Positions 1 to 37,766 of a DNA stretch of 64,000 nucleotides are shown here, piece after piece. A program made the translations under genes and the position numbers. Below the pieces are notes generated by a model that made no database searches, had not been told where the DNA came from, and saw only the letters and a program-made list of their open reading frames with translations. Source of the DNA: Candidatus Multivoradales bacterium (GTDB lineage: Bacteria; Acidobacteriota; Thermoanaerobaculia; Multivoradales; JAHEKO01); NCBI GenBank assembly GCA_965223875.1, contig OZ245024.1, positions 492,015 through 556,014 of the forward strand. The letters are read 5' to 3'. The stretch's first letter is position 1; each line of letters begins with the position of its first letter.

Positions 1-30
1 CTCCGACGCCAAGGAACGGCCTGAACCCGG

Positions 31-150
31 GAAGATCTTCAAGAACCTCCAGAACGTGGTGTCCCCAACTGGCCCTATTTGGAACCCTGACAGCGGGTGG
101 CTCAAGAAGCTGGTGGGCCTAGGCAGGCTCCTGAAGACGATGTCGCTGTG
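31..150. repeat. Copy A of the tRNA-Glu 3'-end-derived att-like repeat (core tggtgtccccaac at 57-69)
   Basis: The sequence 'agaacgtggtgtccccaac' plus a downstream 'ctatttggaaccctga...ggctcaag' tail recurs near 764, 2616, 3228 and 7211. The core equals the reverse complement of the tRNA-Glu 3' end at 18197-18209. Confidence 0.6.
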
Positions 151-244
151 AGCGTAGGCCCGCGAAGTCCTCCGGGACCAGTCCATCGCATCATCTTGAC
201 TTCGTTCGAAGTCACAGACATCATGTGAACCCGGAGGCGCACTC

Positions 245-472
245 ATGACTCAGGTAACAGCAAGACTCCCTGATGAGCTCGTTGAGAAGGCGGATCGCGC
301 GGCCAGTCAGTTGAATCGCTCCCGGGCACAGCTACTCAGGCAAGCTCTCGAGTACTACCTCGACGATTTCGAGGATCTCCGTCTGGCCCTGGACAGGCTG
401 AACGACCCGGCCGACCCCGTGCTCGACTGGGAAGATGTCAAGCGTGAGCTACTCGATCAAGATCAAGAGTAG
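245..472 (+). CDS. Ribbon-helix-helix (CopG/RelB/ParD-like) type II antitoxin
   Basis: 75-aa ORF. The N-terminus 'TARLPDELVEKADRAASQLNRSRAQLLRQALEYYLD' matches the RHH fold pattern. It overlaps the downstream RelE/ParE toxin ORF. Confidence 0.7.
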   Translation: MTQVTARLPDELVEKADRAASQLNRSRAQLLRQALEYYLDDFEDLRLALDRLNDPADPVLDWEDVKRELLDQDQE

Positions 473-698
473 CGCCGCTAAGGCTCTCACGAGAATCGAC
501 GTCAAGGAGAGGACTCGGTTAGTCCAAACGATCGACCGACTGGCCGACGAGCCATCGGCGGGTTCGGCCCTCAAGGGCGAATTCGGAGGTCTGCGACGAC
601 TTCGCGTAGGACGCTATCGAATCATCTACGAAGCCATCCACCGGGAGCTCACCGTCCTGGTCGTTCGCATCGGACATCGCAAGGACGTCTATCGGTAG
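435..698 (+). CDS. RelE/ParE family type II toxin
   Basis: 87-aa ORF ending '...LRRLRVGRYRIIYEAIHRELTVLVVRIGHRKDVYR', the typical RelE/ParE C-terminus. It overlaps the upstream antitoxin. Confidence 0.75.
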   Translation: MSSVSYSIKIKSSAAKALTRIDVKERTRLVQTIDRLADEPSAGSALKGEFGGLRRLRVGRYRIIYEAIHRELTVLVVRIGHRKDVYR

Positions 699-737
699 AT
701 CTCGCCAGGGCTTTGGCCGAGCCTCTATCCCGAGACA

Positions 738-840
738 GAAGATCCCCGAGAATCTCCAGAACGTGGTGTCCCCAACCGCACTCGTTGATCTGTACCAGCT
801 GGAGATTCAAGGCGATACTCGACGACGCGTGGCCTGATCC
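738..840. repeat. Copy B of the att-like repeat (core at 764-776)
   Basis: 'gaagatccccgagaatctccagaacgtggtgtccccaac' is near-identical to the left halves of copies D and E. Confidence 0.6.
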
Positions 841-983
841 ACTGCGCGCTGGTGTCCCCGAGGGGAACGGAGGGCTTGCAGGTCAGTCTAGAGCGGTGGT
901 TCGTGGCGGCTTGACGATGACTGCCGACCCTACGGGGAAACGGCCAGGGATGCCACGAGCAGAGTCCTTGCAGACCTAGAGGG

Positions 984-2321
984 TCACCCGATCTGCCCCT
1001 GTCCTGCGATCGACTCGATGATCTCGACGAACCGGTCGAGCTCGGCGAGAGTCGTGTAGACGTGAGGAGTGACCCGCACTAGGTGGAGCTTGGCGGATTG
1101 ATCGGTCGTCGCCGACTGATCGAGCGGCAGCGCCGAGACCAGGATCTGATGGCGCTCCCACAGGTGCTTTTTCAGCTCCCTGGCGTCGATCCCCTCCAGG
1201 TTGAACGCCGCGATCCCGCAGCTCATCGCCGGATCCTCCGAGGTGTATAACTGTGCTGACGGCAGAGCTCGAATCCGGTCTGCCCAGTACCTGGTGAGCT
1301 GGCGCAGGCGGGACTCCTTGCGCCCGGCGCCGATCGACTCGTGGAAGGTGATCGCCTCGGCGATCCCGGCACCTAGAGCAGCCGATCGGGTGCCGAGATC
1401 GGTGAACTTGGCCATCGGATACTCGGGAGACCTGTTGCTGCCGGGCGGAAAGAGCGGCCAGATCTTGTCCGCCTTGCCCTCACGGATGTAAAGGATGCCG
1501 GTTCCGATGGGCCCGCTGAACCACTTGTGGAGACTGGCTGCGTAGTAGTCGCAGCCGAGGTCTGAGATCGCGGAATCTACAAGGGCGAAAGACTGCGCTC
1601 CATCGACCAGGACCTCGACCCCGCGGCGATGCGCCATGTCGCAGATCGCCTTCACAGGGAAGAGCTGACCGTTGGTGTTCCAGGGATGGGTGACGACAAG
1701 GAGCTTGGTGCGCGAGGACATGCTACGCGCATACAGGTCGACGAGCTCGCCCGTGGAAACGGCCGGGACCGGAACTTCGCGGATCGTACGAACCCGCACG
1801 CCCTCCCGGGCGCTGCGTTGCTCGAGGGTGTCCTGAACGTGCCAGTAGTCGTGGCTGGTCAGCAGAATCTCGTCTCCCGGCTCGAAAGGGAGCCCCAGCA
1901 GGACGTTGTTCAGCGCTTCGGTGGCGTTGCGGACGATGGCGAGTTCGTCCTGAGAGCAGCCGGCGAGCCGGCAGAGCCCATCCGACACTCCGTCCCACAG
2001 GGGCGCCAGAACGTCCCAGATCATCCTCCCCGGCGCCTCCTGCTGTCGCCAAGTGTCCCGCACCACCGCTTCCGTCACACGCCGCGGCGAAGGAGACACA
2101 TTGCCGTTGTCCAGGTAGAGAATGCTGCGGTTGACCGGGAAGGCGCGTTGTACGGCAAACCAGAAGTCCTCGCCTTCGAGAGAGCCATCGACTTCAGGGC
2201 CTTCTACGTCAGCTTCGCTTGCGAAGAGTGCCTCCCTCCGAAGCAGATCAGCCGCAGCAACGGCTGCGGTCGTTCCTGCCAGCGACTCCAGAAGACGTCG
2301 TCGATCGATCAGTCTTCTCAC
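984..2321 (-). CDS. Class V aminotransferase-fold PLP-dependent enzyme with Tat signal peptide
   Basis: 445 aa. The N-terminus 'MRRLIDRRRLLESLAGTTAAVAAA' has a twin-arginine motif. The PLP-lysine motif 'SLHKWFSGPIGTGILYIR' is typical of cysteine desulfurase and isopenicillin-N epimerase-like enzymes. Confidence 0.75.
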   Translation of the reverse strand: MRRLIDRRRLLESLAGTTAAVAAADLLRREALFASEADVEGPEVDGSLEGEDFWFAVQRAFPVNRSILYLDNGNVSPSPRRVTEAVVRDTWRQQEAPGRMIWDVLAPLWDGVSDGLCRLAGCSQDELAIVRNATEALNNVLLGLPFEPGDEILLTSHDYWHVQDTLEQRSAREGVRVRTIREVPVPAVSTGELVDLYARSMSSRTKLLVVTHPWNTNGQLFPVKAICDMAHRRGVEVLVDGAQSFALVDSAISDLGCDYYAASLHKWFSGPIGTGILYIREGKADKIWPLFPPGSNRSPEYPMAKFTDLGTRSAALGAGIAEAITFHESIGAGRKESRLRQLTRYWADRIRALPSAQLYTSEDPAMSCGIAAFNLEGIDARELKKHLWERHQILVSALPLDQSATTDQSAKLHLVRVTPHVYTTLAELDRFVEIIESIAGQGQIG

Positions 2322-2589
2322 GGGTCCCTCCGTCCGAAACTCTGTCCGCTATGTGTCAATGCGACGAGCCAAGTGGCGACACCTCCGACTCCCCGTCGGA
2401 TCTCCGGCGCAGGTCATTTGACTCGGCACCGTAGCGCGGCCGCTCTCGCAAACCTCCTGCCGATCACAGCTAGTTGGACCTATCCTACAAGAGGCTCGTC
2501 TACTGCTGGCTCGGAAAGGTCCCTTGGCCACAGGGCCACCACCCATCCTGTAGGCAGCAGTGCGGAACATACTCGGGGTGGCTCCGAAC

Positions 2590-2714
2590 GACCTCCAGAG
2601 TCAAACCCGAGCACATGGTGTCCCCAACGGGCCATATTTGGAACACTGAGTGGAGCCGGCTCGAGGTCCTTCGGGACCTTGCAGCGCGACTTTCTGGAAT
2701 GGCGGCCTGACTAG
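2590..2714. repeat. Copy C of the att-like repeat (core at 2616-2628)
   Basis: 'catggtgtccccaacgggccatatttggaacactgagtgg...ggcctgactag' shares the 'ccatatttggaaccctgag' tail with copies D and E. A 'gcggcctgactag' end motif also occurs at ~5790. Confidence 0.6.
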
Positions 2715-2718
2715 AGTT

Positions 2719-2979
2719 TCAGCTGGATCCCGCGGCGGAAGCACCAGCCAAGAGGCCCGCGACGCTGATGTCCTCGTCCGCTTCCGGCCAGTGAACACCC
2801 TCGCCGTCGCCTAGGAGCTGCCACTCCGCCCGAGCTTCCGGCGAGGCCGATTGCAGACGCGGAAACCAAGTGAGAGGAACCGTCAAGCGACGACCATCAG
2901 CGAGCGTGACGGTGAGTTCATCTGCAGTGACTTCCACTTCTTGGGCCAACGGAACGGCTTCAACGACTGAAGAACTCAT
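2719..2979 (-). CDS. DUF2442 domain protein (partner of DUF4160)
   Basis: 'MSSSVVEAVPLAQEVEVTADELTVTLADGRRLTVPLTWFPRLQSASPEARAEWQLLGDGEGVHWPEADEDISVAGLL' fits the DUF2442 pattern. Its start overlaps the stop of the upstream DUF4160 frame by ~14 nt. Confidence 0.65.
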   Translation of the reverse strand: MSSSVVEAVPLAQEVEVTADELTVTLADGRRLTVPLTWFPRLQSASPEARAEWQLLGDGEGVHWPEADEDISVAGLLAGASAAGSS

Positions 2980-3190
2980 ACCAAGTCTCCAAGAGCTGGA
3001 CCTCATTATCTCGCACAAGAGCCTCGACCGTAGTCAACTCGTGCGTCGGGAACCGTGTCGAGCGAGCCAGACGTACCGGATCCAGCCAGAACTTCGCCAA
3101 GGCTCTGTCGCGCTGGACGTGGATATGCGGTGGCTCGGAGCCCTCGTTGCTGAAGAAGAAGAACCGATAGGCGCCGATGCGCAGGACAGT
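2960..3190 (-). CDS. DUF4160 domain protein with no canonical start codon (possible pseudogene or rare start)
   Basis: The manual minus-strand translation '...ATVLRIGAYRFFFFSNEGSEPPHIHVQRDRALAKFWLDPVRLARSTRFPTHELTTVEALVRDNEVQLLETWYEFFSR*' is a clear DUF4160 signature. No ATG/GTG/TTG lies in frame between the upstream stop (3206-3208) and the conserved N-terminus. The ORF track does not list it. Confidence 0.5.
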   Translation of the reverse strand, partial: TVLRIGAYRFFFFSNEGSEPPHIHVQRDRALAKFWLDPVRLARSTRFPTHELTTVEALVRDNEVQLLETWYEFFSR

Positions 3191-3201
3191 CGCGCTCGCA
3201 T

Positions 3202-3330
3202 CAGGAGACTACCCGAGGGTCGGAAGATCCCCAAGAATCTCCAGGGTATGGTGTCCCCAACCGGCCATATTTGGAACCCTGAGTCGAATTGGCTCAGGAT
3301 TCTGCGTGACCTCTCCCGGCGGCCGGGCTA
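3202..3330. repeat. Copy D of the att-like repeat (core at 3228-3240)
   Basis: Contains 'ggaagatccccaagaatctccagggtatggtgtccccaaccggccatatttggaaccctgagtcgaattggctcaggattctg'. Confidence 0.6.
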
Positions 3331-3360
3331 GAGAGCGGTGTGCCTACGAGACGATGCCTG

Positions 3361-3621
3361 CTATCTGAAGGCAGCGCCGCGATGGGCGATGTCCAAGATC
3401 AGGATCGCGGAGCCTTCCTCGTTGAACCGATAGATGATTCTCAAGGAGGCCACTCGGAGGGACCGATGCCCAGCTAGCGGACCGGCTAGAGGCTTGCCCG
3501 CCGCAGGGTCGTCGCTGAGTCGGTCCAACGCTCGATCTACTCTCTCAAAGAGGCGACGATCGCTTCTAGCCAGTCTGCGAAAGCTCTTCCTAGCGTGGCT
3601 GGAGAGCCTAACGCCGATCAC
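3361..3621 (-). CDS. ParE/RelE family type II toxin
   Basis: '...FRRLARSDRRLFERVDRALDRLSDDPAAGKPLAGPLAGHRSLRVASLRIIYRFNEEGSAILILDIAHRGAAFR'. The likely GTG start near 3621 overlaps the end of the upstream Phd/YefM gene. The ORF track extends it to 3663. Confidence 0.7.
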   Translation of the reverse strand: MIGVRLSSHARKSFRRLARSDRRLFERVDRALDRLSDDPAAGKPLAGPLAGHRSLRVASLRIIYRFNEEGSAILILDIAHRGAAFR

Positions 3622-3895
3622 CCGCGAGCTCCCGCCGCACCTCTTCCAGGGAGTGGTCCCCACCGGTCAGGAACTCATCGTCCGCCTCGACGAGTCGTTG
3701 CACCTGCACCTTGCTCGAGAGGATCTCGAGAGTCTCCAGAAGACCTTCGAACTCCTCCGAGGAGAGCAACACCGCTTGAGCACGCCCCCTGCGAGTGATC
3801 ACGAATCGGTCGAAGTGATCATGGGCTCGGGCCAGAAGCTCGGACAGCCGGGGTCTCATCTCAGTCAGCGACACAGTCTCGGTGGCCATAGGCAC
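3608..3895 (-). CDS. Phd/YefM family type II antitoxin
   Basis: 'MATETVSLTEMRPRLSELLARAHDHFDRFVITRRGRAQAVLLSSEEFEGLLETLEI' is a canonical Phd/YefM N-terminus. Confidence 0.8.
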   Translation of the reverse strand: MPMATETVSLTEMRPRLSELLARAHDHFDRFVITRRGRAQAVLLSSEEFEGLLETLEILSSKVQVQRLVEADDEFLTGGDHSLEEVRRELAGDRR

Positions 3896-4021
3896 CTCCG
3901 GGCAAAGTGTACGTGATCAAGTAAAGATCAGTCGAGGGCTCAACGTAACCCGACGCAGCAGACTCGCGGATCGGCCCGAGCCGTGGGGAGGACATTCAGA
4001 TCCTCGCTACGGCCGACGCCT

Positions 4022-4729
4022 CTACCAGCCACCTCGTTCGCCAGTTCGCTCGATGGCCCGACGCACTCGCTGGGCGGCGCGCTCCCAGTTAGCGAGGACC
4101 GCGTCCTCAGCCCTATTCGCATCGCCGGCTCGAATCGCATCGATGATGACCTCGTGCTCCGCGACAGATTCCGGAATGCGCTCCACGATGTGCGACGCAT
4201 AACTCCAGGCGTAGCGGGCGATCTGAGGCTTGACTGCCTTGCGCATCGCCATCAGCCGCGGGCCTGCGACCGCATCGAGGTAGACAGCATGAAAGGCGTG
4301 ATCCAACTCGACGAGCTGGCCAGCAATGACATCCGCATCGCGGCTTGCCTCCAGGAAGGCTCGGTTTCGGATCGAGAGCTCTCGGGCCAACGCTTCGCGG
4401 CGCTCAGCCGATAGCTCGGCGGCCCGGCGAGCCGCCACCGCGTCCAGTCGGGCCACGATGTCGTGCAGTTCGCGTGCGTCTTCCCCGGTCAGAGCAGCAA
4501 CAACAGGGCGCGCATACTTCTCGGCCCTGTTGGCTACCAGGAGGCCCTCATCCTGAAGCCGCTTCACCGCTTCCCGTACGGGGGTCCGACTGACTCCAAG
4601 GCGCTCCGCAATCTCGCGCTCGACGATACGTGTTCCGGGAGACAGCACACCGCGCACGATGCGGTCCAGGAGCTCCTCGTAGACACGATCGACCGTCTGC
4701 TTGGGTGAATCAGTTGATTCCGTCGGCAT
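4022..4729 (-). CDS. GntR family transcriptional regulator (FadR/FCD subfamily)
   Basis: The GntR winged HTH 'VYEELLDRIVRGVLSPGTRIVEREIAERLGVSRTPVREAVKRLQDEGLL' is followed by an FCD-like C-terminal domain. The ORF track's 456-aa version (to 5392) has an Arg/Gly-rich N-terminal extension that looks like an artefact. The start was taken at the internal 'MPTEST'. Confidence 0.7.
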   Translation of the reverse strand: MPTESTDSPKQTVDRVYEELLDRIVRGVLSPGTRIVEREIAERLGVSRTPVREAVKRLQDEGLLVANRAEKYARPVVAALTGEDARELHDIVARLDAVAARRAAELSAERREALARELSIRNRAFLEASRDADVIAGQLVELDHAFHAVYLDAVAGPRLMAMRKAVKPQIARYAWSYASHIVERIPESVAEHEVIIDAIRAGDANRAEDAVLANWERAAQRVRRAIERTGERGGW

Positions 4730-4795
4730 TCGAAACCTAATGGTATACCATCTCGTAGTTCTCCTCGAAAGACACCGTCCGTACAGGCGCAACAC

Positions 4796-5731
4796 ATGGA
4801 CCAAGGAGAAACGATGACCGCCGAAACGAGCCCAACGCCCACTTTTCTGCACTATTGGCACCGAATTCCTGTTCTGATTCGAGCACCTGTGACGGGAGTC
4901 CTCGTCGTCTGGGTCGGCACGTATCTCGCCAGCCCGTTGATCGTGGGGAATCTCCGATTCCTTCCCTCCGTCCCATGGGCGCTGCCCGCCGCGGCGCTCA
5001 TCCTGTGGCCCTACTGGTTGTACCTGTCCGGCCGCGGCTGGCCGCGGTCGACGGCCGAGGCCAGACGAATCTGCCTGCGCGGAGGTGCTCTTCCCTCTGG
5101 GCTGTGGGGACCGTCTCTCCTCGCCGGCGGCTGCGCCATGGGTACCCTCATCGGCTTGAAGTTCCTCCTCCCACGCCTCTTCCCTATGACCGAGTCCAGC
5201 CTGGCGATCGACGTATCCCAGTATCCGACATGGACCGTTCTGGGACTCGCCTTCGCCGTGAGCCTCACGGCTGGCGTGAGCGAGGAAGCCGGCCTGCGCG
5301 GCTATCTGCAAGGGCCGCTCGAGCGCCGCTACGGGCTGGTGTTTGCGGTCCTCTTGACTGGAGTGGTCTTCTGGGCCCTCCACCTGAACCACGACTGGGT
5401 CGGCCTACCCCACTTGCTCTTTCATGTCAGCGCCAGTGTGGCCCTTGGAACGCTGACCTCCTTCGTCGGATCGATTCGCCCGGCCGTCGTGATTCACACC
5501 GCAGCCGACATGATTCTGATCCCGCTCGCCGCCTTTCGCCCACCCCGACTCTGGGAGCTGATGAGCGCTCGCCCCATCTACGAGACCGGCTGGAGAGCGG
5601 CCGATCCGCTGCTGATCGGTCTGGTAGCGGTCTTCGGCTGTGCAACGGCGCTGACACTGGCCAGGCTCAGGAGGCTCGCTATCGCGAAGAAGCAGGCTGA
5701 ACCAACTTCCGAAGACCAACCGAGGCGCTGA
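4796..5731 (+). CDS. CPBP family intramembrane metalloprotease (CAAX protease/Abi-like)
   Basis: Multi-TM protein with the CPBP motifs 'EEAGLRGYLQ' (EExxxR) and 'FWALHL' (FxxxH), plus a later 'HTAADM'. It is transcribed divergently from the GntR gene. Confidence 0.65.
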   Translation: MDQGETMTAETSPTPTFLHYWHRIPVLIRAPVTGVLVVWVGTYLASPLIVGNLRFLPSVPWALPAAALILWPYWLYLSGRGWPRSTAEARRICLRGGALPSGLWGPSLLAGGCAMGTLIGLKFLLPRLFPMTESSLAIDVSQYPTWTVLGLAFAVSLTAGVSEEAGLRGYLQGPLERRYGLVFAVLLTGVVFWALHLNHDWVGLPHLLFHVSASVALGTLTSFVGSIRPAVVIHTAADMILIPLAAFRPPRLWELMSARPIYETGWRAADPLLIGLVAVFGCATALTLARLRRLAIAKKQAEPTSEDQPRR

Positions 5732-5734
5732 CAC

Positions 5735-5800
5735 TCAATCGAGTTGGCTCAAGAGGCTTCAAGGCCTCGGCAGGACCTGCAGGAACAGCGGCCTGACTCC
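5735..5800. repeat. Partial copy (tail only) of the att-like repeat family
   Basis: 'gagttggctcaagaggcttcaaggcctcggcaggacctgcaggaacagcggcctgactcc' resembles the tails of copy A ('gtggctcaagaagctggtgggcctaggcagg') and copy C ('gcggcctgactag'). Confidence 0.4.
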
Positions 5801-5844
5801 GCCGATCGCGCGATTCCCGCAACGCATTCGTGTATAATCCATGC

Positions 5845-6099
5845 ATGGCTACTAAGACGATTTCTCTAGAGCTCGATGCTTACGAGAAGCTCAAGCGAGC
5901 GAAGCGCTCCGACAGGGAGTCGTTCTCGTCAGTGGTGCGCCGAGCCCGCTTTGCACACGAGACCAAGACGGCAGAGCAGGTCCTGAGTGCCCTGAGAGGC
6001 CTGGCTGCGAACCACCCCGAAAGCCTGCTCAACGAGGAAACACTCAATCAACTGAGTGAGCGCGCCGGCTCGCGAGCCAGCCGAGCCCGCCCGAAATGA
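5845..6099 (+). CDS. VapB-like antitoxin
   Basis: 'MATKTISLELDAYEKLKRAKRSDRESFSSVVRRARF...' is the N-terminus of a small antitoxin. Its stop overlaps the start of the downstream PIN toxin (ATGA at 6096). Confidence 0.6.
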   Translation: MATKTISLELDAYEKLKRAKRSDRESFSSVVRRARFAHETKTAEQVLSALRGLAANHPESLLNEETLNQLSERAGSRASRARPK

Positions 6100-6482
6100 T
6101 CCTCGATACCACGGTTCTGGTCGATCTACAGAGGGAGCTGCGGCGGGAGGAGGCCGGCCCCGCGTCGCAACTTCTCGACGAGCTTCGCGAAACGGAGGTC
6201 GCCATAACCTTCGTCACCTGGATGGAGTTCGCCGAGGGCTACAGGGAAGACCAGCGCGAAGCGTGTGACCGTTTCCTGGCCCCGTTTCAGGTCCTCTGGC
6301 CCGATGCGGACACCGCCTGGCGAGCCGCTCGAATCTCGCGCTCTCTTCGGTCGCGAGGCAAGGCGATCGGAGATCACGACGCCTGGATCGCAGCACTCGC
6401 CCTGCAGCACGGCCGGTCCGTGGCCACGGCCAACGACCGCCACTTCAAGCGGGTGCCATCCCTAGCCGTGCGCACGTACTAG
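6096..6482 (+). CDS. vapC: VapC PIN-domain toxin
   Basis: 'MILDTTVLVDLQRE...' has a PIN-domain layout with conserved acidic residues (D4 and D-rich positions, 'HDAWIAALALQHGRSVATANDRHFKRV'). Confidence 0.75.
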   Translation: MILDTTVLVDLQRELRREEAGPASQLLDELRETEVAITFVTWMEFAEGYREDQREACDRFLAPFQVLWPDADTAWRAARISRSLRSRGKAIGDHDAWIAALALQHGRSVATANDRHFKRVPSLAVRTY

Positions 6483-6510
6483 GATCAGCGACCCCGCTGG
6501 GAACAGAGAG

Positions 6511-7020
6511 ATGGGAGTGCTGCGCTGTACGGCGAAGTATCGGCAGCTCTTTGGCCTTCCAAACGAGCTCGAGGAGCCTGCATCACCCGTTAGTGGGCTT
6601 GGTACATGGTACGCAAACACTCTGAATATCGGCCATGGCCGATACCTCCACTACATGTCTGACGAGGCGAGGCTTTCGATAATCGTCGAGCTTCGTCGCC
6701 GCCACACGGCTGAGCGGCGTTTCGCTCAGGCGTTGGCCGAACTGCTCAAGCACTTCGGGACGGACGCTCGTTGCGCCGAGAGGGAAATCATGACGTTGAC
6801 TTCCCTCGCTTACGCCCGGGCCACTAGTCGTAGCGTTCTCGGATCTATGAGAGACCACGCGCAACTGTCAAAGGCCTGCCTTCGCGACGAAGCGAGTCTA
6901 TGGGATCTCATGCTCTTTCTCGCGGAGACCCCGTCCGGCCCTCTGGACTACGAATCCCCGGATCGCGTCGCTCCTCGGCTGGTAGAAGACAGGTGGCGAG
7001 GGCCGAGGCCCGTCCCCTAA
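6511..7020 (+). CDS. Hypothetical protein
   Basis: 169-aa ORF with plausible coding composition and no recognised motif. Confidence 0.35.
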   Translation: MGVLRCTAKYRQLFGLPNELEEPASPVSGLGTWYANTLNIGHGRYLHYMSDEARLSIIVELRRRHTAERRFAQALAELLKHFGTDARCAEREIMTLTSLAYARATSRSVLGSMRDHAQLSKACLRDEASLWDLMLFLAETPSGPLDYESPDRVAPRLVEDRWRGPRPVP

Positions 7021-7184
7021 CTGGCACATCGCAGAGTTCGACAGAGTCGTGCAAGCGAGGATCAATCACCGGCGGCCCGACCTGCCGCCGAGAGCTCGCG
7101 ATCAGGTGCAACATCGAAACCGCCGTAGGAGCAGGTCGAGCTTCTGGACCAGACCGGAAATGTGCCGTCAAGACGCAGTACCCA

Positions 7185-7300
7185 GAAGATCCCCAAGAAT
7201 CTCCAGAACGTGGTGTCCCCAACTGCCCATATTTGGAACCCTGAGTGGGGGTGGCTCAGGAATCTCTGCAGCCTCAGACACCTGCTGGCGGGAGCCGCTG
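7185..7300. repeat. Copy E of the att-like repeat (core at 7211-7223)
   Basis: Contains 'cagaagatccccaagaatctccagaacgtggtgtccccaactgcccatatttggaaccctgagtgggggtggctcaggaatctc'. Confidence 0.6.
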
Positions 7301-7553
7301 CGCGATGAAGGAGTCTTAGGAACGGCTAACCCGAGCTGTCCTGAGGAGCGCCGACCGCCGAGCCTCAATCTCTTCCGGACAGGAGCTTCCTGCCAACCAT
7401 CTGGGCTAGTTCGGCCTCACTCGGGCCGTAGGCCGCAGCAGCTCCAAGTATTGAGTCGGCGATGCCGGTCCCTGACACCAAGCTGGCGCGGTTCCCGTAG
7501 GGAGCATTGATGCACCCAAACGAGTTCATTCCTCGAGGCCTCGAAGGAGAAAC

Positions 7554-9068
7554 ATGACGCACTGGAAGACGCCAATCCTATTGCTTGCCCTCGCCATGGC
7601 TCTCAGTGTCCTGCCGTCCTCTGCGGACGCACCGCCAACATTGGCCGCGCTCGACGCCGAGATCCCCATCCTCATGCAGAATTACGATGTCCCCGGTCTC
7701 GCGCTGGCAGTCGTCCAGGATGGCGAGATTGCCTTCAGCCGCGGCTACGGCGTCCGAGAGCTGGGTGGCAACGATCCGGTCGACGCCGACACGTTGTTCG
7801 CCATCGGCTCGATCACCAAGTCATTCACCGCTGCCTGTCTGGGTCTCGGAGTCGAGGACGGGACGCTCGGCTGGGACGATCCGATCGCCGAGCACCTGCC
7901 GTTCTTCGCCCTCAAGGACCCCTGGATCACTCGTCGGGTTACCATCCGCGACTTCCTCAGCCATCGCAGCGGCCTGGAGCCCAACAACCTGATCTCCTGG
8001 GATACGAAGCTCGGCCGCGAAGACATCGTCCGGAGGCTCCGTTTCCTCGACATCAACGGGTTCCGGAGCAGTTTTCGGTACAACAACCTCGCCGTCTCGG
8101 CCGCCGGACAGGTACTCCCGGCGGCCACGGGCCAGAGTTGGGACGATTGCGTTCAGTTGCGGATCTTCGCCCCGCTCGGCATGGAGCGCAGCACTGTCAA
8201 CAACAAGCAATTCGAAGGCGACCTCAACGTCGCGTCGGCGCACGTCCAGATCGATGGAGCACTTCGGCCCTACCCACGCCAGGACCTCGACAACGATGCA
8301 CCGTCCGGATCGATCTACTCGAGCGCCGCCGAAATGACCCGCTGGATTCTCGCCCACGTCCAGGACGGCACGGTCGACGGCAAGCCCGTTCTGCCTCCTG
8401 CTGTCATTCGCGAGATGCGCGCTCCCCAGAATCCCATCAACGCTCCCGACCTCGCGCGCTACGCACCCGGCGCCAACCTCGTCGCCTACGGCCTCGGCTG
8501 GAATCTCCAGGACTATGGTGGCGAGCTCGCGGTGGCCCACGGCGGCGGCACGCGCGGGATGACGGCGCAGCTCGGGATGCTCCCGGGCCGCAGGTCCGGT
8601 TTCGTCGTCCTGTCGAACGCCCCGTACTCGACTCTACCGGCGCTGATCCAGTACAAGGTCTACGACGCGCTCCTGGGCATCGAGGGCGCAGACTGGAACG
8701 CCCACTTCGAAGACGTGGAGCGCGAGGTCGAGGCTTGGTTCGCGACCTTCCGTCCTCCGGCGGCCCAGCCGGGGACTCACCCGTCGCTCCCCCTCGACGC
8801 CTACACCGGGACCTATCACAACGACCTCTATGGTCCAGCCGTCGTCCGCCTGGAGGACGACCGCCTGAGTCTCGAGCTGGCCGACCTCGGGCACAGGGCC
8901 ACACTGGAGCACTTTCATCACGACACTTTCGAAACGCGCTGGGAATCGGGAAGGCACAGTATGGTCGGCGGCATGGTGCCGCTTATCGCCTTCAATCTCA
9001 GCGTCGACGGCGTCATCGAGTCCCTGACACCCGGTCGGGCGATCTTCCAGCGGGTGGTGGAACAGTGA
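7554..9068 (+). CDS. Secreted serine hydrolase of the beta-lactamase/PBP family (class C-like)
   Basis: Signal peptide, the SxxK motif 'GSITKSF' and the YxN motif 'RYNNLAV'. 504 aa. Confidence 0.75.
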   Translation: MTHWKTPILLLALAMALSVLPSSADAPPTLAALDAEIPILMQNYDVPGLALAVVQDGEIAFSRGYGVRELGGNDPVDADTLFAIGSITKSFTAACLGLGVEDGTLGWDDPIAEHLPFFALKDPWITRRVTIRDFLSHRSGLEPNNLISWDTKLGREDIVRRLRFLDINGFRSSFRYNNLAVSAAGQVLPAATGQSWDDCVQLRIFAPLGMERSTVNNKQFEGDLNVASAHVQIDGALRPYPRQDLDNDAPSGSIYSSAAEMTRWILAHVQDGTVDGKPVLPPAVIREMRAPQNPINAPDLARYAPGANLVAYGLGWNLQDYGGELAVAHGGGTRGMTAQLGMLPGRRSGFVVLSNAPYSTLPALIQYKVYDALLGIEGADWNAHFEDVEREVEAWFATFRPPAAQPGTHPSLPLDAYTGTYHNDLYGPAVVRLEDDRLSLELADLGHRATLEHFHHDTFETRWESGRHSMVGGMVPLIAFNLSVDGVIESLTPGRAIFQRVVEQ

Positions 9069-9106
9069 CCGGAGAGTCCTCGAGAACCTCGAGAACCTCG
9101 AGAACA

Positions 9107-9157
9107 TGGTGTCCCCAACGGGATTCGAACCCGTGTTGCCAGCTTGAAAGGCTGGAG
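9107..9157. repeat. 51-bp direct repeat of the tRNA-Glu 3' end (att site of the integrated element, distal to int)
   Basis: 'tggtgtccccaacgggattcgaacccgtgttgccagcttgaaaggctggag' is identical to 18197-18247. It is preceded by a 3x 'ctcgagaac' tandem. Confidence 0.85.
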
Positions 9158-9276
9158 CTTGACATGCTCTAAAGGCATGTAAACCCAGGGCTTATCTGAA
9201 ACAGAGGATTGAGAGGTCCCCATTGGGGTCCCCAACAGGATCTACGTTCTGCCTTCTGGCCGGCTTGACCAGACCG

Positions 9277-9897
9277 TCACGGATCGGACTGTTTTCGTCG
9301 CCACCGCTCGTAGCGCTCCCACTTGGCGCGGTGCTCGTGACTGAAGGATGTTGCTTCGGAGGGCAGGAAGACGTAGCCAGGACGCTCTAGATCGAAGACT
9401 CCGAGGGCGAGGTTGAGCCGCAGGAGTCCGAGCTTGTTCTCGAGGTCGGCCTGGGAGAGCCCTTCGAGCTTGTCAGCCGAGTAGAAGCGAGGTAGGTCCT
9501 CAAGAGTGACTTGCTCCCAAGGGTCCACGGGAGCAGGTACTTGCTCTTCGGCGGGCTCGATCGCCGCATCCTCCTTGCCGATGTCCCCCAAGGTCTCCTC
9601 AAGCTCCCGCTCTAGCTCCAGCTGGGTCTCGATCAGCCGCGCCATGGTCGCGGCCCTGGCCTGAATATGGACGGCTTTCTCCCTGAACCGCTCGAGCTCG
9701 GGGATTGTCGCGGCGTCAGCCTCGCCGCCAAGGTACAGCCAGGCCTCCTCGAGGTCGCTGCGCGCCCGCTCAAGGCACTGCCAGGAGACGTCCGCCAGCC
9801 TGGCTCGCAACTCCTCCTGACTGAGCCCCTCGAGATCCTCTGGCTTCACGAAGTCGGGAAAGTCGTCGGCCGTGAGCTTGGAATCATCCGCAACCAC
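9277..9897 (-). CDS. Hypothetical acidic protein with internal repeat (island cargo)
   Basis: 206 aa. Contains the repeated motif 'DLEGLSQEELRARL'/'KLEGLSQADLENKL'. Confidence 0.4.
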   Translation of the reverse strand: MVADDSKLTADDFPDFVKPEDLEGLSQEELRARLADVSWQCLERARSDLEEAWLYLGGEADAATIPELERFREKAVHIQARAATMARLIETQLELERELEETLGDIGKEDAAIEPAEEQVPAPVDPWEQVTLEDLPRFYSADKLEGLSQADLENKLGLLRLNLALGVFDLERPGYVFLPSEATSFSHEHRAKWERYERWRRKQSDP

Positions 9898-9925
9898 GGC
9901 TGCCTCACCCTTCTCGGTTCTGCTC

Positions 9926-10234
9926 CTACTCGAGGTAGCCGCGTTCCTTCAGCTTCTTGAGGTAGTCCTCTCGGGACTCTGTGCATCCGACCATCGCATA
10001 GAGAGTGGACAGTTCACCTGGCTCAAGGCGAAGCTGCCCCGCGATCTGTCTCAGAAGGGACGGGTGGAGAGAAGCTGACCGCAGATTGCGTGAGAATCGA
10101 GTGGTGGTGACCCGCTTGTTGTTGACTGTGAGGGCGACGGCTTCATGCTTCTTGCCGGGGACTTCCTCGAAGCCAAACTTGCTAACTAGGGAGGTTTTCA
10201 GTTCCCCCTTCGTCACTACCGGGCGCTTACTCAC
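9926..10234 (-). CDS. Hypothetical small protein (possible toxin-like partner of the upstream ORF)
   Basis: 102-aa ORF. A 4-bp overlap with the upstream ORF suggests an operonic pair. Confidence 0.35.
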   Translation of the reverse strand: MSKRPVVTKGELKTSLVSKFGFEEVPGKKHEAVALTVNNKRVTTTRFSRNLRSASLHPSLLRQIAGQLRLEPGELSTLYAMVGCTESREDYLKKLKERGYLE

Positions 10235-10656
10235 CGAGGCACTGGGCCGAGAAAATACTCGAGCATGTGCAACTGATGGGCTAGGTGTTGCGAGAGTTCG
10301 CTGCGTGACTGGTCGAGTTCAGCGCGTGTCTCGAACAACATGTCAAGGAAGTCCTCTAGGGCTTCATCGAGCGAGTCACCTACGCCATATGCAGAGAGGA
10401 TCTCGTCACACACCATCGTTTGGCCGGCATCGATCTCCTGCCCGCTAAGAAGGAGAGGTCTCTTGAGGCCTGGTCCCTGCACCCGGAATACGACGGGGTG
10501 AGGTTCATACGGATAGTCGTCTGCCGAGGAGCTGACAGCACTTGGCCCAAAAGTGATCTGGTCGTGACTATTCAGCATCTTCCCCACCACTTGATCCCAA
10601 AATGGTGCGACCCTCATCGTAGCTACGCATGTTCTCAACGAGGGCGTGTGCCACAC
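10231..10656 (-). CDS. Hypothetical protein
   Basis: 141-aa ORF. Its true start is probably internal, because it overlaps the DUF3467 ORF. Confidence 0.3.
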   Translation of the reverse strand: MWHTPSLRTCVATMRVAPFWDQVVGKMLNSHDQITFGPSAVSSSADDYPYEPHPVVFRVQGPGLKRPLLLSGQEIDAGQTMVCDEILSAYGVGDSLDEALEDFLDMLFETRAELDQSRSELSQHLAHQLHMLEYFLGPVPR

Positions 10657-10894
10657 GTCTCATGGTTCCTGGCGAAAGTGCAACTCGCGCAACTGGGCGA
10701 ACACTCACCATCTCTGGCGTTTCGGCATTGAGCATCGATGCCGGGGGCGTGGCCTCCCCAAAGATCAGGTAGAACTCGTTTCCCGAAGCATGGGAAACAA
10801 CTACATGGTTGGCGAATACCGTCGACAGGTCATCGTCGTCATCCGACCAGACCAGCCGCACGATCTTGCGGTCCTCTTTCGGCACTGGGTTCAT
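10568..10894 (-). CDS. DUF3467 domain protein
   Basis: 'FANHVVVSHASGNEFYLIFGEATPP' resembles the DUF3467 core. Confidence 0.45.
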   Translation of the reverse strand: MNPVPKEDRKIVRLVWSDDDDDLSTVFANHVVVSHASGNEFYLIFGEATPPASMLNAETPEMVSVRPVARVALSPGTMRRVAHALVENMRSYDEGRTILGSSGGEDAE

Positions 10895-11047
10895 CCGCAG
10901 AATGAGAGATTAAACACTAGCATACCGCTGCCTGAACAACGGTGTCCTAGCGCGGCATCATCGGTGGTTGCAAGATGGGCGCCACCCGGCGCGACGGACG
11001 TGACCGGGTGACGCCTGGCTGGGCGAGATGAGGAAACCCAGCCGTTT

Positions 11048-11751
11048 CTAGGCTGCGGCTGGAGGCGTGTCCTTCGCCCGCTCCGCGAGCGTCCGAGCCT
11101 GAGCCGCTGCGATCTCATCAGCCCGAGCGGCTTCAGGATCGCGAGACTTGGCGATCTCAGCCGCAACGATGGTCTCGCCGACCCGAAGATGCTTGACGGC
11201 ATCCGACAGAGCGTCCGCGAGCCTGGCCTGCCCGGGGTCGAGCTGTCGGGCCACGTGCCGGCGCATGTCGGAGGTCGGAAGCAGGCCGAAGGCGCTTGGG
11301 CCACACAGCGCCGAGACAAGCACCTGCGGGTCATCCGCGTGCATCGCGTCGGTGATCGCCTTAGATCGCTCTGAACGCGGTAGGCCGAGCAGCCAGTCGC
11401 GCACCTCACGCTGCTGCCAGCTTGGGACACGCTCGACCACGGTCGAGCCAGAGAGCAGCTCAGCCTCTGCCAGGACCGCAGCTGCACGTGCCTTGCTGCC
11501 GTAGTCACGCTTGATCTTCCCGAGCTCCTCGCTGGCCTTGGCGGCTGCCCGGGTCTTGAGCCGTCGCTTGGCCATGTCTCCGATCTCGAGGTTGGCGTCG
11601 ATCCGCGCGATCTCGTCCCGGTGAGACTTCATCACTCCGCGCAGCGACCCGTAGCCGCTCTGGGCGCTTTGGAAGCCCGGCGTCTTGTAGTCGTCGGCGA
11701 ACTTCGGGAAGTCCGGCAGTTCGCCGAGGGTCATGCTCCGTTCGTCCGTCA
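11048..11751 (-). CDS. Hypothetical protein
   Basis: Start taken at the internal 'MTDERSMTLGELPDF'. The ORF track extends it to 12007 through the next small gene. Confidence 0.35.
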
Positions 11752-11976
11752 TGCTGCCTCCAGGTTCGCGAGCCGTTCGCGAAGCGCCCTGACGTATTCC
11801 CCGCCTCCCATCCAGGACTGAACTGCCTGGAACGTGTAGCGGATTCCATCGGGTGTCTCGATCCAGCCGGGGCCCGGCGTCGAGTGGACGGTGTGCCCTT
11901 CGCGCCAGGCCTGCAGGGTTGCTTCTGGGATCATGGTTTGAGTTGAAACGTCGGCTTCCGTCAGTAGGTCTTTCAT
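11749..11976 (-). CDS. Hypothetical small protein
   Basis: 75-aa ORF with clean coding composition. Confidence 0.3.
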   Translation of the reverse strand: MKDLLTEADVSTQTMIPEATLQAWREGHTVHSTPGPGWIETPDGIRYTFQAVQSWMGGGEYVRALRERLANLEAA

Positions 11977-12003
11977 GTGGTCCTTTCTGCCCTAGCGGGC
12001 GTG

Positions 12004-13455
12004 TCACCTCAAGAAGTTCGCGCGGGTCACGGTGACTTCGCCACCCACGTAGTCCTCCATCACGAGATAGCGCAGCGCGTCCGCGGCGTGGTCGGCCGCC
12101 CGGGTATCTACATCGTCCTCGTCTCTGGGGAGCGTTCGCAGCGTCTCCAGGAGGTAGCGGCAGCGATCGGAGATGAGCACCTGCGCCTCGCCGTCGTCGG
12201 CAAGTAGAAGGCGCCTGAGCCGCTCCCAGCCACCAACACGTGAGCCCTTTGTGGATTCACTCACGCGGATGCCGGAGCGTTCGTACTCTGCCGCCAGAGA
12301 ACCGCGATCGTGGCCGTGGCGAGCGAAGCAGGCGGCATCGAGAACCGCCCGCGTACCAAGTCCCCACTCATCGGCCTTTCCGTGAATGTGGAGCGCCGCG
12401 TCGGCGATATCGAGTCCCAGGCCCCGATTCAGGTCGTTGGGGTCGTGCAGGGCCACCTCGTCGATGATCGCCCAGGCCTCCTTGCTGACTTCCCGCCCAT
12501 CTGGAGTCGGTAGACCGGCATAGCGAGGGCGAATGGCCAGGAGGGCAACCAGTGGAGCCGAGCGGCCATGATCGATCGACCAGAGCGATCGCCAGCGCGG
12601 CGGCCCTTGCTCGTGTACTCGCCAGTCGGGACGGAAGGGCTTTCCGTTCTCGCTCTTGAGCCACTCGGGCGACCAGCTGTCGCCATCAAGCGTGATTCGC
12701 TCCCAGTTGACGCCCTCGAAGTAGATCCCGCCCCGAACGATGAACCAATCACCCCCGATCCACGCCTCTCTGAGCTCCGGATCGGTGGCGGTGGCGGCCA
12801 AGAGCTGCGCCTTGTAGCTCTCGTGGTCGAGGAAAGGGTTGTCCTCGTGGGTGCTCGGGCAGCTCACGAACTTGGCCCCAAGCTCGTCGGTCTCGTAGGG
12901 CAGCCAAGGGGTGCGACCATCGACGTGGCGCTGGCGCAGCCAGCTGTGCCCAACACCGCCAGGGTTTGCCGCCATCACCACGCGCGTCGGAACGCCGCGG
13001 GGCGAGCGGAGGTTGCCGCGAAGGCGATCGAGGATCTCGGGAGAGGACCACTCGCCGCACTCGTCGGCTAGGAGCAGCGTTGCCGAGCGGCCCTGGAACT
13101 TGGTGAGCTGCTGCTGTGTCTGTGCCTGCTGGAGCTCGAGCGTCGCACCGTTCGGGAATCGCCACACCTTGTCAGCGCTGTTGTACCGGGCGCTGGCGCC
13201 GTAGATCGAGCTGTAGAGCTCGAGCGTCAGGGTCTCGAAGTCCCGGACGCCCGGGAAGCTCTGACGGATGTAGAGAGCCCGAGCCCGGGCCCCGTACTGC
13301 TCGGCGTGTCGAAGGGCTAGCAGAGCCAGCGTGAAGGACTTCCCTCCCCCACGACCACCACCGAGGAAGAGGTCAACATCCTCGGGCGTCGCCAGGACGC
13401 GCTCCTGGAACGGCGAGAGCCTGATTGCCGCCTCAGCTTGTTCGGCTTTCGCCAT
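12004..13455 (-). CDS. Phage terminase large subunit-like ATPase
   Basis: Walker A 'FLGGGRGGGKSF' in the N-terminal ATPase region. 483 aa, within the size range of TerL. Confidence 0.6.
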   Translation of the reverse strand: MAKAEQAEAAIRLSPFQERVLATPEDVDLFLGGGRGGGKSFTLALLALRHAEQYGARARALYIRQSFPGVRDFETLTLELYSSIYGASARYNSADKVWRFPNGATLELQQAQTQQQLTKFQGRSATLLLADECGEWSSPEILDRLRGNLRSPRGVPTRVVMAANPGGVGHSWLRQRHVDGRTPWLPYETDELGAKFVSCPSTHEDNPFLDHESYKAQLLAATATDPELREAWIGGDWFIVRGGIYFEGVNWERITLDGDSWSPEWLKSENGKPFRPDWRVHEQGPPRWRSLWSIDHGRSAPLVALLAIRPRYAGLPTPDGREVSKEAWAIIDEVALHDPNDLNRGLGLDIADAALHIHGKADEWGLGTRAVLDAACFARHGHDRGSLAAEYERSGIRVSESTKGSRVGGWERLRRLLLADDGEAQVLISDRCRYLLETLRTLPRDEDDVDTRAADHAADALRYLVMEDYVGGEVTVTRANFLR

Positions 13456-13903
13456 TGGTGCCTCCCTGTAGTTGCTTCCGCTCGACGTGGGCGGTGATCT
13501 CCTTCTCGTAGCGCTCGAGAGGTAGTGCTCCGGGCAGGGCGATCGTGACGTTGGTCGTGGACTGCTGCGCTGGCTCTGGCGGCGGGCGGTCGTTCCAACG
13601 ATGGCGACTCTTCAGCAGAAAGATCGCCGGCGTGATTGCGCTCTGGTTCTTGACCTCGAGCGCCTGGTGGAGGCGGTCGAGCAGTCTCTTCTCGTGCGCA
13701 GCCTCGCCACGCTCGAGTCGAAGTGCAGCCACCTTGTCGCGCTTGATCTCCCGCTGGAAGTCGGCCCAGACCATCCCCAGCTCGGCAGCGACGCCCTTTC
13801 GAGTGCGACCCTCGCTCCCAAGCTCTTCGAGGACCGGGTAGTCGCGGCGGAACAGCTTGGACTTGAGCCTAGGCATCAGCTCGGCTCCACTGGGATGTCG
13901 CAT
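13433..13903 (-). CDS. Putative terminase small subunit / HTH DNA-binding protein
   Basis: The 156-aa ORF lies immediately upstream of the TerL-like gene. It has an HTH-like segment 'GRTRKGVAAELGMVWADF'. Confidence 0.35.
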   Translation of the reverse strand: MRHPSGAELMPRLKSKLFRRDYPVLEELGSEGRTRKGVAAELGMVWADFQREIKRDKVAALRLERGEAAHEKRLLDRLHQALEVKNQSAITPAIFLLKSRHRWNDRPPPEPAQQSTTNVTIALPGALPLERYEKEITAHVERKQLQGGTNGESRTS

Positions 13904-14175
13904 CGTGAGCAGAGAACGATCCGTTCGCCTCGCTCATCAGCCTTCTGACACGAGCTGCACCATCGCTCACGTGGCGCGCGACGCCTGACGATTGGGGTGT
14001 CCCATAGTTCGAGGAGATGAGGCTTGAGCCACCGGATGCGTGTCTTGATCTCGTCGGCCGGGAGGCCGGCTGGAATGAGGTAGTGCACCCGGTCGCCCTG
14101 CACGTCGAGTTCGACACCCTGGCTACTGAGGTCGCGCAGCACCTCCACGGCCTCAAGGTGGTAGGCATCGATCAC
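13876..14175 (-). CDS. Hypothetical protein
   Basis: 99-aa ORF overlapping its neighbours by 4 bp, consistent with an operon. Confidence 0.3.
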   Translation of the reverse strand: MIDAYHLEAVEVLRDLSSQGVELDVQGDRVHYLIPAGLPADEIKTRIRWLKPHLLELWDTPIVRRRAPRERWCSSCQKADERGERIVLCSRCDIPVEPS

Positions 14176-15452: not shown

Positions 15453-15622
15453 GCCGCTCGCCCCCGTCTGGCGGCGCGGTCCATGTCGATCTTCTCGAGC
15501 CGATCGAGCTCTGCGTGGATCTCGGGATACCGTTCTCGGGCCAGGCGGTCCTGGTTCTCAAGCGCCTCAAGCTCAGCAGCGATCTCCGCCTGAACTTGGG
15601 CAACCCTCTCTCGAGCGTTCAT
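15449..15622 (-). CDS. Hypothetical small coiled-coil protein
   Basis: The manual translation 'MNARERVAQVQAEIAAELEALENQDRLARERYPEIHAELDRLEKIDMDRAARRGRAA*' is in the minus-strand frame between AlpA and RepA. An ATGA overlap joins it to the RepA start. Confidence 0.3.
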   Translation of the reverse strand: MNARERVAQVQAEIAAELEALENQDRLARERYPEIHAELDRLEKIDMDRAARRGRAA

Positions 15623-15879: not shown

Positions 15880-16074
15880 GGAGAGGGATGTGCCCTACTG
15901 CGTCTGTCAGAGGGGATTGCGTTCCGATTCACACCCATCTCACTCTCCCATCGGTCGCCCCTGCGACCCCACGGAACTGCTGTATTTAGGTAATAGCACG
16001 CAGTCACTGAACCGTCAAGGCCCCTTCGGCGTAGCGAATGTCATCTGCGGGGAATCAATTTCGCTGCTTTCGGC

Positions 16075-16647: not shown

Positions 16648-16725
16648 CGGGCTTACTCCTTTGCGTGACTCGGCCCGTCCCGGAGTTGCCGCTCCAGGCG
16701 GGCCGTCTTGTGGTTCTCCGTCCGG

Positions 16726-37640: not shown

Positions 37641-37766
37641 ATGGCACCAAGCCTAGGACATTCAGAGCATATTCGGGGTACGTTCCCGGCATAACAGGAC
37701 CTCCTGAAGAAGGCCCTAAGAACCAGCGAAAACCTAGGATCTACTTGCCGCAAAGGAGTATTCTGA

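Follow-up and report, generated by a model that had tools for sequence, protein, structure and literature searches.

The tandem accretion of integrase-less elements flanked by attachment (att) sites, known as cis-mobilizable elements (CIMEs), together with ICEs (integrative and conjugative elements) and IMEs (integrative and mobilizable elements) at the 3′ ends of tRNA and protein-coding genes has been described, for example in the ICESt1/ICESt3 family of Streptococcus (PMC5704250). In Dehalococcoides, tandem islands are located at ssrA, downstream of a single t(m)RNA gene, and each is bounded by a direct repeat of about 20 bp of its 3′ end (PMC3146451). In the tycheposon islands of Prochlorococcus, partial tRNAs separate successive integrations, and deeper in the islands degenerate remnants are found together with more partial tRNAs (10.1101/2020.12.28.424599). 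Here, we describe a repeat array next to the tRNA-Glu gene of a Candidatus Multivoradales bacterium (assembly GCA_965223875.1), in which small gene modules are separated by diverged copies of a unit that contains the last 13 bases of the tRNA gene. The window, as we refer to the whole stretch of DNA that was analysed, covers 64,000 nucleotides (contig OZ245024.1, positions 492,015 to 556,014) of the 5.05-Mb (5,050,453 bp) chromosome. Although its layout is integron-like, the array is best understood as an extreme and miniaturised form of a known process, the serial integration of elements at tRNA genes. A first-pass annotation of the same DNA had not recognised it as a described element type, which was an overstatement given the CIMEs, the t(m)RNA islands and the remnants separated by partial tRNAs.

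Repeat units at the tRNA-Glu 3′ end

The tRNA-Glu(TTC) gene was identified as intact by ARAGORN at positions 18197 to 18274 on the minus strand. Its last 13 bases, the acceptor end plus CCA, read on the plus strand as the reverse complement TGGTGTCCCCAAC, here called the core. Exact copies of the core were found at 7 positions, all on the plus strand (57, 764, 2616, 3249, 7211, 9107, and 18197). When up to 2 mismatches were allowed, 9 sites were found compared to 1.1 expected, and none of 100 shuffled sequences reached this number. The same-orientation array of the tRNA-Glu 3′ end proposed in the first-pass annotation was thereby confirmed. The copies listed there at 57, 764, 2616, and 7211 and the tail near 5740 were recovered, whereas the one placed at 3228 was the left arm of a unit with its core at 3249, and the core at 9107, in a displaced tRNA-Glu 3′ half, was additional to that list. 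All 7 cores were perfectly conserved, while the neighbouring bases drift.

Four of the core copies were located inside units of about 100 bp, each with a conserved left arm and a degenerate right arm resembling the 3′ half of the tRNA. By repeat finding and alignments, the unit was resolved into 3 parts with a total length of approximately 100 to 120 bp: a left arm of about 26 bp composed of 3 degenerate 9-mers (GAAGATCCCCAAGAATCTCCAGAACG), the core, and a right arm of the form nGCCCATATTTGGAACCCTGAG-N9-GGCTCAGGA, followed by a weaker tail that ended with GCGGCCTGAC in some copies. The right arms were 64% to 80% alike over 45 nucleotides, compared to 58% to 64% between the right arms and the tRNA. 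The copies are in this sense closer to each other than to the tRNA, as had been claimed, although the lower values are near the background of the gapped measure. The right arms also hold derived changes in common, so that the units are copies of one another rather than independently decayed tRNA fragments, and here the first-pass annotation was upheld.

Units A, D, and F were complete. Unit A (31 to 150) consisted of a left arm at 31 to 56, the core at 57 to 69, and a right arm from 70 to approximately 150. In unit D (3223 to 3345), the left arm at 3223 to 3248 and the core at 3249 to 3261 were followed by the right arm, and in unit F (7185 to 7305), the left arm at 7185 to 7210 and the core at 7211 to 7223 were followed by a right arm with the hairpin CCTGAG-N9-CTCAGG. 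Unit B (738 to 776) contained only a left arm and a core. The sequence on its right side belongs to the cassette for a pyridoxal phosphate (PLP) enzyme described below; a degenerate second core was found beyond it, at 850 to 862. The left arm of unit C (2590 to 2712) was diverged, and was followed by the core at 2616 to 2628 and the right arm. Only the tail of the right arm was left in unit E (5735 to 5806), which had lost the left arm, the core, and the proximal part of the right arm. These 6 units were all on the plus strand. On the minus strand, unit G (9079 to 9176) contained 3 copies of CTCGAGAAC as its left arm (9079 to 9105) and the displaced tRNA-Glu 3′ half (9107 to 9176).

A single base separates the motif CTCNAGAAS from the core in units A, B, and F, in unit G, where the motif is present as 3 tandem copies, and also at the live tRNA, where CTCTAGAAG-g precedes the core on the plus strand. 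At the left end of the window, positions 1 to 30 on the plus strand were joined directly to the left arm of unit A and aligned with the right-arm tails GGAAnnGCGGCCTGAC of units C and E and of a hybrid unit, L001c, in the metagenome contig L001. This segment is probably the tail of a further right arm, which with the left arm of unit A would make a unit without cargo, and the array thus probably extends leftward past the window.

An array of tRNA pseudogenes was not supported, since the units were not recognised as tRNA by either the Rfam covariance model or ARAGORN. The only match to the Rfam tRNA model within positions 1 to 9400 at E ≤ 10 was at 9110 to 9176, corresponding to the 3′ half that ARAGORN identified as an incomplete tRNA-Glu at 9107 to 9176 on the minus strand, and no tRNA-Glu was found beyond this and the intact copy.

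DNA folding of both strands gave no significant overall fold for the units in the window (z-scores of −0.5 to +1.5), and no significant attC-like or tRNA-like structure. The units formed just a local hairpin of 6 to 10 bp, for which a compensatory change was seen in one metagenome copy (CCTTAG...CTAAGG). This bears on the explanation that the array is a true integron or a CALIN (attC sites clustered without an integron integrase). An IntI-type integrase encoded at another locus would then recombine the units, as atypical attC sites, in the form of folded single strands. Small cassettes rich in toxin-antitoxin genes with repeats of 100 to 130 bp between them would fit such an element, as would the end of the core, CCCCAAC, which is close to the RYYYAAC box, and the long imperfect hairpins of the cargo-less units in related genomes, which hold an inverted GTTGGGGAC. 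Yet in addition to the missing fold, the window units have no GTTRRRY partner, the genes are in mixed orientation, the array adjoins a tRNA rather than attI and intI, and the N-terminal domain of the sole integrase seen in the 64-kb window is of the arm-binding kind that is typical of P4/lambda-type enzymes. We consider this explanation very improbable.

Cassettes with limits at the core

The units separate at least 6 compact modules of 0.6 to 2.5 kb, here called cassettes, which mainly consist of toxin-antitoxin pairs. Pfam annotation of all open reading frames in the cassettes identified no integrase or transfer genes, and genes were found on both strands.

We searched for the array in other genomes. 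The unit-specific pattern had no match in 185,579 species genomes and 3 true matches in metagenome contigs (L001, L002, and L004), while the single match in viral contigs was due to chance. A hidden Markov model of the unit identified no further copies in the other 46 kb or so of the window, the part of the genome in which the search for copies elsewhere suggested in the first-pass annotation was made. Within the 64 kb of this genome and the collections searched, these results speak against a dispersed repeat of the repetitive extragenic palindrome or miniature inverted-repeat transposable element type. The same tRNA-Glu 3′ end was found at 118 loci in many phyla, but only 2 of these had more than one exact core per 8-kb block, with a maximum of 3, which makes the array described here unusual.

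The comparison with L001 showed that the cassettes are limited by the core. Positions 1825 to 2533 in L001 correspond to 68 to 778 in the window with 90% identity, and positions 2519 to 2920 correspond to 2616 to 3014 with 87% identity (blastn). In L001, the cassette for a ribbon-helix-helix (RHH) antitoxin and a ParE toxin is joined to the DUF2442 cassette by a single complete hybrid unit, which means that positions 777 to 2628 of the window, that is the PLP cassette and one core, are missing exactly at the core. Judging from these alignments, the PLP segment is a precise insertion or deletion at the core.

The arms of the units co-vary with the neighbouring cargo. Unit B has an RHH-ParE-type left arm and a foreign right side, unit C has a foreign left arm and a DUF2442-type right arm, and L001c combines the native halves of both. 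Furthermore, the right-arm subtype of unit A goes with RHH-ParE in both the window and L001, and the HigBA-type left arm ATCTTCTCCAGAACA goes with HigA in L004 and in L149, the orthologous locus of a related species. Left arms thus stay linked to the cargo that precedes them, to their left, and right arms to the cargo that follows, to their right. Together with the core-limited difference in L001, this bore out the proposal in the first-pass annotation that discrete cassettes are located between the units.

The gene content of the cassettes also agreed with the first-pass annotation according to the Pfam searches, with the exception of one open reading frame that lacked a canonical start codon. 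The first cassette (190 to 700, plus strand) contains a promoter/operator region, with a promoter-like site at 196 to 224, followed by genes for the RHH antitoxin (245 to 472) and a ParE/RelE toxin (435 to 698). The second cassette (777 to 2615, minus strand) contains a single gene for a PLP enzyme of the class-V aminotransferase fold (984 to 2321), and its own diverged left arm at 2590 to 2615. In the third cassette (2719 to 3208, minus strand), which measures 633 bp from core to core, the genes are located only 4 to 15 bp from the arms; it contains a DUF2442 gene (2719 to 2979/3018) and a DUF4160 frame (2963 to 3208, minus strand). The latter was supported by a Pfam E-value of 7.8e-18 but had no ATG, GTG, or TTG codon upstream of the domain, and may be a pseudogene or use a non-canonical start.

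The fourth cassette (3361 to 5731) has genes on both strands: those for ParE (3361 to 3663), Phd/YefM (3608 to 3895), and a GntR/FCD regulator (4022 to 4732) are on the minus strand, and that for a CPBP/Rce1-like protease (4796 to 5731) is on the plus strand. The fifth cassette (5830 to 7020, plus strand) contains genes for VapB (5830 to 6099), VapC/PIN (6096 to 6482), and a DUF6933 protein (6511 to 7020), and this module was found elsewhere with the same limits. The sixth (7554 to 9068, plus strand) contains a gene for a serine hydrolase of the beta-lactamase family with a DUF3471 domain.

The content and order of the cassettes varied among L001, L002, and L149, while shared cassettes kept their orientation relative to the tRNA. 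In L001, RelE was present a second time, along with BrnT/BrnA, a hypothetical gene, and a fragment of VapC, and L002 had units on either side of a CPBP gene, followed by HigB. It was also noted that positions 780 to 900 in L002 contain an NN-joined duplication that starts exactly at a unit left arm and continues into 2 different right arms, which suggests either alternative cassette junctions in the population or an assembly artefact at the repeat.

In L149, the tRNA-side kinase gene was about 75% identical to that in the window at the DNA level, with synteny beyond it, but there was no integrase island and no integrase within 10 kb. On the tRNA side, L149 contained 2 cargo-less units of 128 and 129 bp (11355 to 11612), with a right arm homologous to that in the window, followed by HigBA, RHH-ParE, and further boundaries that are more decayed. 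VapBC was located farther from the tRNA than RHH-ParE, opposite to the order in the window, although both kept their orientation to the tRNA.

Homologues of the cargo were also found in non-array contexts without units, namely copies of the PLP enzyme gene (L006 to L012), RHH-ParE (L015 to L024), and VapBC (L025 to L028), and the cargo is thus not bound to the units. The closest homologues of the PLP enzyme were 78% identical and located in ordinary chromosomal contexts, with the homology confined to the gene. The RHH-ParE module with its palindromic operator had the same limits at the DNA level (190/196 to 696/700) in array and non-array contexts (L013, L015, L016, L019, L024, and L149), and thus behaves as a discrete transferable unit that is independent of the repeats. 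A different short repeat, GGTGCCACCCTTTTGTCC, was present in 5 copies in L025 (including 3208 to 3261 and 4826 to 4930) and once, reversed, beside the RHH-ParE module in L013 (at about 7830).

Cargo-less units, the integrase island and the origin of the array

By tRNA identity and synteny, the chromosome groups with sponge-type Acidobacteriota labelled Candidatus Multivorans/Multivoraceae and Holophagales. In other relatives, the tRNA-Glu gene is followed by a variable number of 97-bp cargo-less units and then by the same flanking gene, with no unit in L041, one in L099 (7632 to 7778), and 3 in L117 (649 to 970), and likewise none in L081 and 1 to 2 in L082 and L106. Adjacent copies were up to 92% to 97% identical. 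In L149 and L155, contigs that are 99.7% identical, the difference was one cargo-less unit. A search with the flanking kinase gave orthologues with identities of 64% to 72% as the nearest, of which that in L157 (67%) is next to an empty site. 

The cargo-less units carry a degenerate copy of the T-arm, which in L082/L113 (GGGATTTGGATCCAGAG) is intermediate between the tRNA and the right arm in the window, and an inverted copy of the tRNA end (GTTGGGGAC) that generates the long imperfect hairpin. In L157, which has no cassette array at this site, the tRNA-Glu 3′ end runs straight into an inverted copy of itself (13025 to 13125, GAATCCCGTTGGGGACACCA-ATG-TGTCCCCAACGGGATTC), a palindrome that is terminator-like. 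Given these findings, the site family is old in the lineage and probably grew from the tRNA end and the terminator region. We rejected the possibility that the units are complete tRNAs in degenerate form, since what looks like a 5′ acceptor strand in the relatives is the 3′ end copied in inverted orientation. A contig from an unrelated uncultured bacterium (L115) contained 2 cargo-less units of 113 and 175 bp before tRNA-Glu (665 to 1027), with an exact 13-bp core and a conserved trailer hairpin.

The variable numbers of near-identical cargo-less units (0, 1, and 3 in L041, L099, and L117; 1 and 2 in L155 and L149) are what would be expected if a tandem repeat derived from the tRNA 3′ end and terminator, for which the palindrome in L157 suggests the origin, changed by unequal crossing-over and provided portable homology through which the DNA between two units was swapped, duplicated, or deleted, with no dedicated site-specific recombinase. 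Duplicated cassettes within arrays, 2 RelE copies in L001 and 2 HigA copies in L149, point the same way. However, what units B and C have in common is limited to the 13-bp core and to left arms of weak similarity, and for this reason the PLP difference is not an ordinary homologous deletion between long repeats. Homologous exchange would also scramble the link between arm subtype and cargo, yet this link is kept, and perfect cores amid drifting bases point to selection on, or renewal of, the core. As an account of the cassettes, we consider repeat-mediated exchange unlikely.

The array is separated from the live tRNA by an integrase island (9177 to 18196, minus strand) with genes for TerL (12004 to 13455), a primase/helicase-like AAA_25 protein (14172 to 15452), and a P4-type tyrosine integrase (16726 to 18018) with the domains Arm-DNA-bind_3, Phage_int_M, and Phage_integrase. 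The 9-kb element at 9107 to 18274 is a phage-satellite-like island. Its ends share 51 identical bases (9107 to 9157 and 18197 to 18247), from the anticodon stem to CCA, and unit G is its distal att site. It thus has the arm-binding tyrosine integrase beside an intact tRNA and the tRNA 3′ repeat at the far end that are characteristic of P4-type islands.

The motif GGTCCCCAWNR, which is similar to the tRNA core GTCCCCAA, was found only 4 times in the 64 kb. The copies form two tandem pairs with a spacing of 12 bp, one close to either end of the island on its inner side (9215 to 9237 and 18035 to 18057). These pairs, which are absent from the small units, are plausible arm-type integrase-binding sites. 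The junction CTCNAGAAS-N-core is common to the integrase island and the cassettes.

The window also contains a tRNA-Lys gene (37767 to 37842, minus strand), followed by a degraded, apparently frameshifted region that resembles a tyrosine integrase gene (approximately 36680 to 37600, minus strand), and near it a gene for an FRG-domain protein (35835 to 36728); the stretch from 35835 to 37842 is low in G+C. No array like that at tRNA-Glu was found at this tRNA-Lys, the 3′ end of which is unrepeated in the window.

Since the complete integrase island is the member closest to the tRNA, and hence the newest, one may ask whether the cassettes are what is left of older islands. The intervals would then be internally deleted remnants of full integrase-bearing elements of one family that were pushed outward as newer elements integrated at the tRNA, so that only the att ends, the addictive toxin-antitoxin modules, and a small number of useful genes survived, and the cassettes themselves were never mobile. 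Searches with tblastn of positions 1 to 9200 found no remnants of the proteins of the neighbouring island and none of 120 P4-type integrases, for which the best match had an E-value of 0.005 and was located within the PLP gene. No pseudogene remnants were seen in these very compact cassettes, although old decay of a former ICE or IME would still be compatible with their absence. The deletions must also have stopped repeatedly, in several cassettes, within a few bases of both arms, the arms of the small units are unlike those of the resident island, and the 1.85-kb single-gene PLP segment is present or absent between lineages exactly at the core.

On the other hand, such deletion is a documented route to CIMEs and tandem arrays (PMC5704250; 10.1101/2020.12.28.424599; PMC3146451), and the resistance of toxin-antitoxin modules to deletion would account for their dominance. 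Partial decay is in fact seen in units B, C, and E, and further decay in L149 and L013. On balance, we find it rather unlikely that the cassettes are such remnants. Their compactness and the absence of integrase remnants suggest that they were small from the outset and were not reduced from full islands.

The explanation that we favour, with moderate confidence, is that a tyrosine integrase acted in trans on the core to insert and excise the cassettes, such that the tandem array grew at tRNA-Glu. A circular cassette would carry one attP-like site of approximately 100 to 130 bp, with the left arm, the core, and the right arm, where the latter would be an old, degenerate copy of the tRNA 3′ half that is free to drift because it never enters the live tRNA. 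Recombination of this site with the core of the tRNA, or with any core in the array, would insert the cassette and generate hybrid units, in which a left arm from one cassette is paired with a right arm from its neighbour. A source in trans would provide the recombinase, most plausibly a P4-type tyrosine integrase like that of the satellite-like island on the tRNA side.

Site-specific recombination within the core would fit the core-limited difference in L001, the chimeric nature of all internal units, the linkage between arms and cargo, and the constant orientation. The circular intermediates, the direction of each event, the identity of the recombinase, and the mobility itself are what we infer from this pattern.

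Several observations weigh against the favoured explanation. No recombinase is tied to the small units, and the integrase at 16726 to 18018, a tRNA-targeting tyrosine integrase of the sort put forward as the driver in the first-pass annotation, is a candidate. Its island has the GGTCCCCAWNR pairs, which the small units lack, and the 51-bp block of identity, which suggests that the crossover of the island takes place in or near the anticodon arm. L149 has both cassettes and cargo-less units and yet no integrase within 10 kb. For the change in the number of cargo-less copies of 97 to 129 bp between near-identical contigs, unequal homologous recombination is an easier explanation than the excision of tiny circles. 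Moreover, the PLP cassette is the single clean difference seen at the level of cassettes, the toxin-antitoxin modules with identical limits outside arrays mean that cargo may arrive by other routes, and our view is confined to 64 kb of a 5.05-Mb genome.

A more far-reaching form of the favoured explanation, which we regard as possible but doubtful, is that of a tRNA-anchored analogue of integrons. The tRNA-Glu 3′ end would here serve as the attI-like entry site and the portable ~100-bp site as an attC-like tag, and a conventional arm-binding tyrosine integrase carried by a satellite-like island would shuffle cassettes of one to 4 genes in trans. The site in its empty form would be seen in the cargo-less units, on a platform kept by this sponge-associated lineage of Acidobacteriota.

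If the cassettes moved singly in trans, they would represent a second, independently evolved form of cassette capture, based on double-strand att recombination at a tRNA rather than on folded attC sites. They would also offer a tractable system for the formation of minimal cassettes, which is unsolved for integrons, and would reveal the way in which symbiont genomes acquire and build up toxin-antitoxin modules. Were the array just a collection of remnants, it would still be a clean example of toxin-antitoxin modules that have outlived the elements that brought them.

Comparison with known systems

The tycheposons (10.1101/2020.12.28.424599) likewise target tRNA genes and include satellite-like members with integrase, replication, and packaging genes, but the likeness to the island described here is only architectural (an integrase, a primase/helicase-like gene, and TerL). 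The tycheposons belong to another phylum and another integrase lineage and have much larger cargo. The repeats here are diverged but homologous units in which conserved arms flank the core on either side, rather than simple partial tRNAs. The number of ssrA islands in Dehalococcoides varies between strains and some members are without an integration module (PMC3146451), which is reminiscent of our array. Those islands, however, have a serine recombinase module, are phage-sized, and mostly carry their own integrase, whereas the modules here consist of one to 4 genes and are associated with a tyrosine recombinase of the P4 type.

Integron arrays and CALINs (PMC4889954) have in common with the array compact, promoter-poor cassettes, recombination sites of 60 to 140 bp, a fixed exchange point, and abundant toxin-antitoxin cassettes. 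They differ in that no IntI was found in the 64-kb window, in that attC hairpins and R and L boxes are missing, and in the mixed gene orientation seen here. In addition, the platform here is the 3′ end of a tRNA, and the chemistry is presumably classical double-strand att recombination.

A different form of modularity is seen on Acinetobacter plasmids. The pdif modules on these plasmids are small and often contain toxin-antitoxin genes, and they are flanked by short recombination sites and use a recombinase encoded elsewhere. The pdif sites are 28-bp XerC/XerD sites in alternating orientation, whereas the repeats described here are direct, tRNA-derived, and chromosomal.

CIMEs (PMC5704250) resemble the cassettes in being integrase-less and flanked on both sides by att sites in one orientation, with a repeated 3′ end of the target and hybrid internal att sites, and in having a functional integrase-bearing element in the same array. 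Two features of CIMEs, att repeats of the target 3′ end in direct orientation and the lack of integrase or transfer genes inside, were also found here. Unlike CIMEs, which range from several kb to tens of kb, the cassettes measure 0.6 to 2.5 kb and at least 6 follow one another. No remains of integration or transfer genes are seen in them, and they have a conserved site of about 100 bp and mainly carry toxin-antitoxin genes. Compared to the systems described so far, the size of the cassettes, the conserved and portable ~100-bp site, the prevalence of toxin-antitoxin genes, and the existence of units without cargo look unusual.

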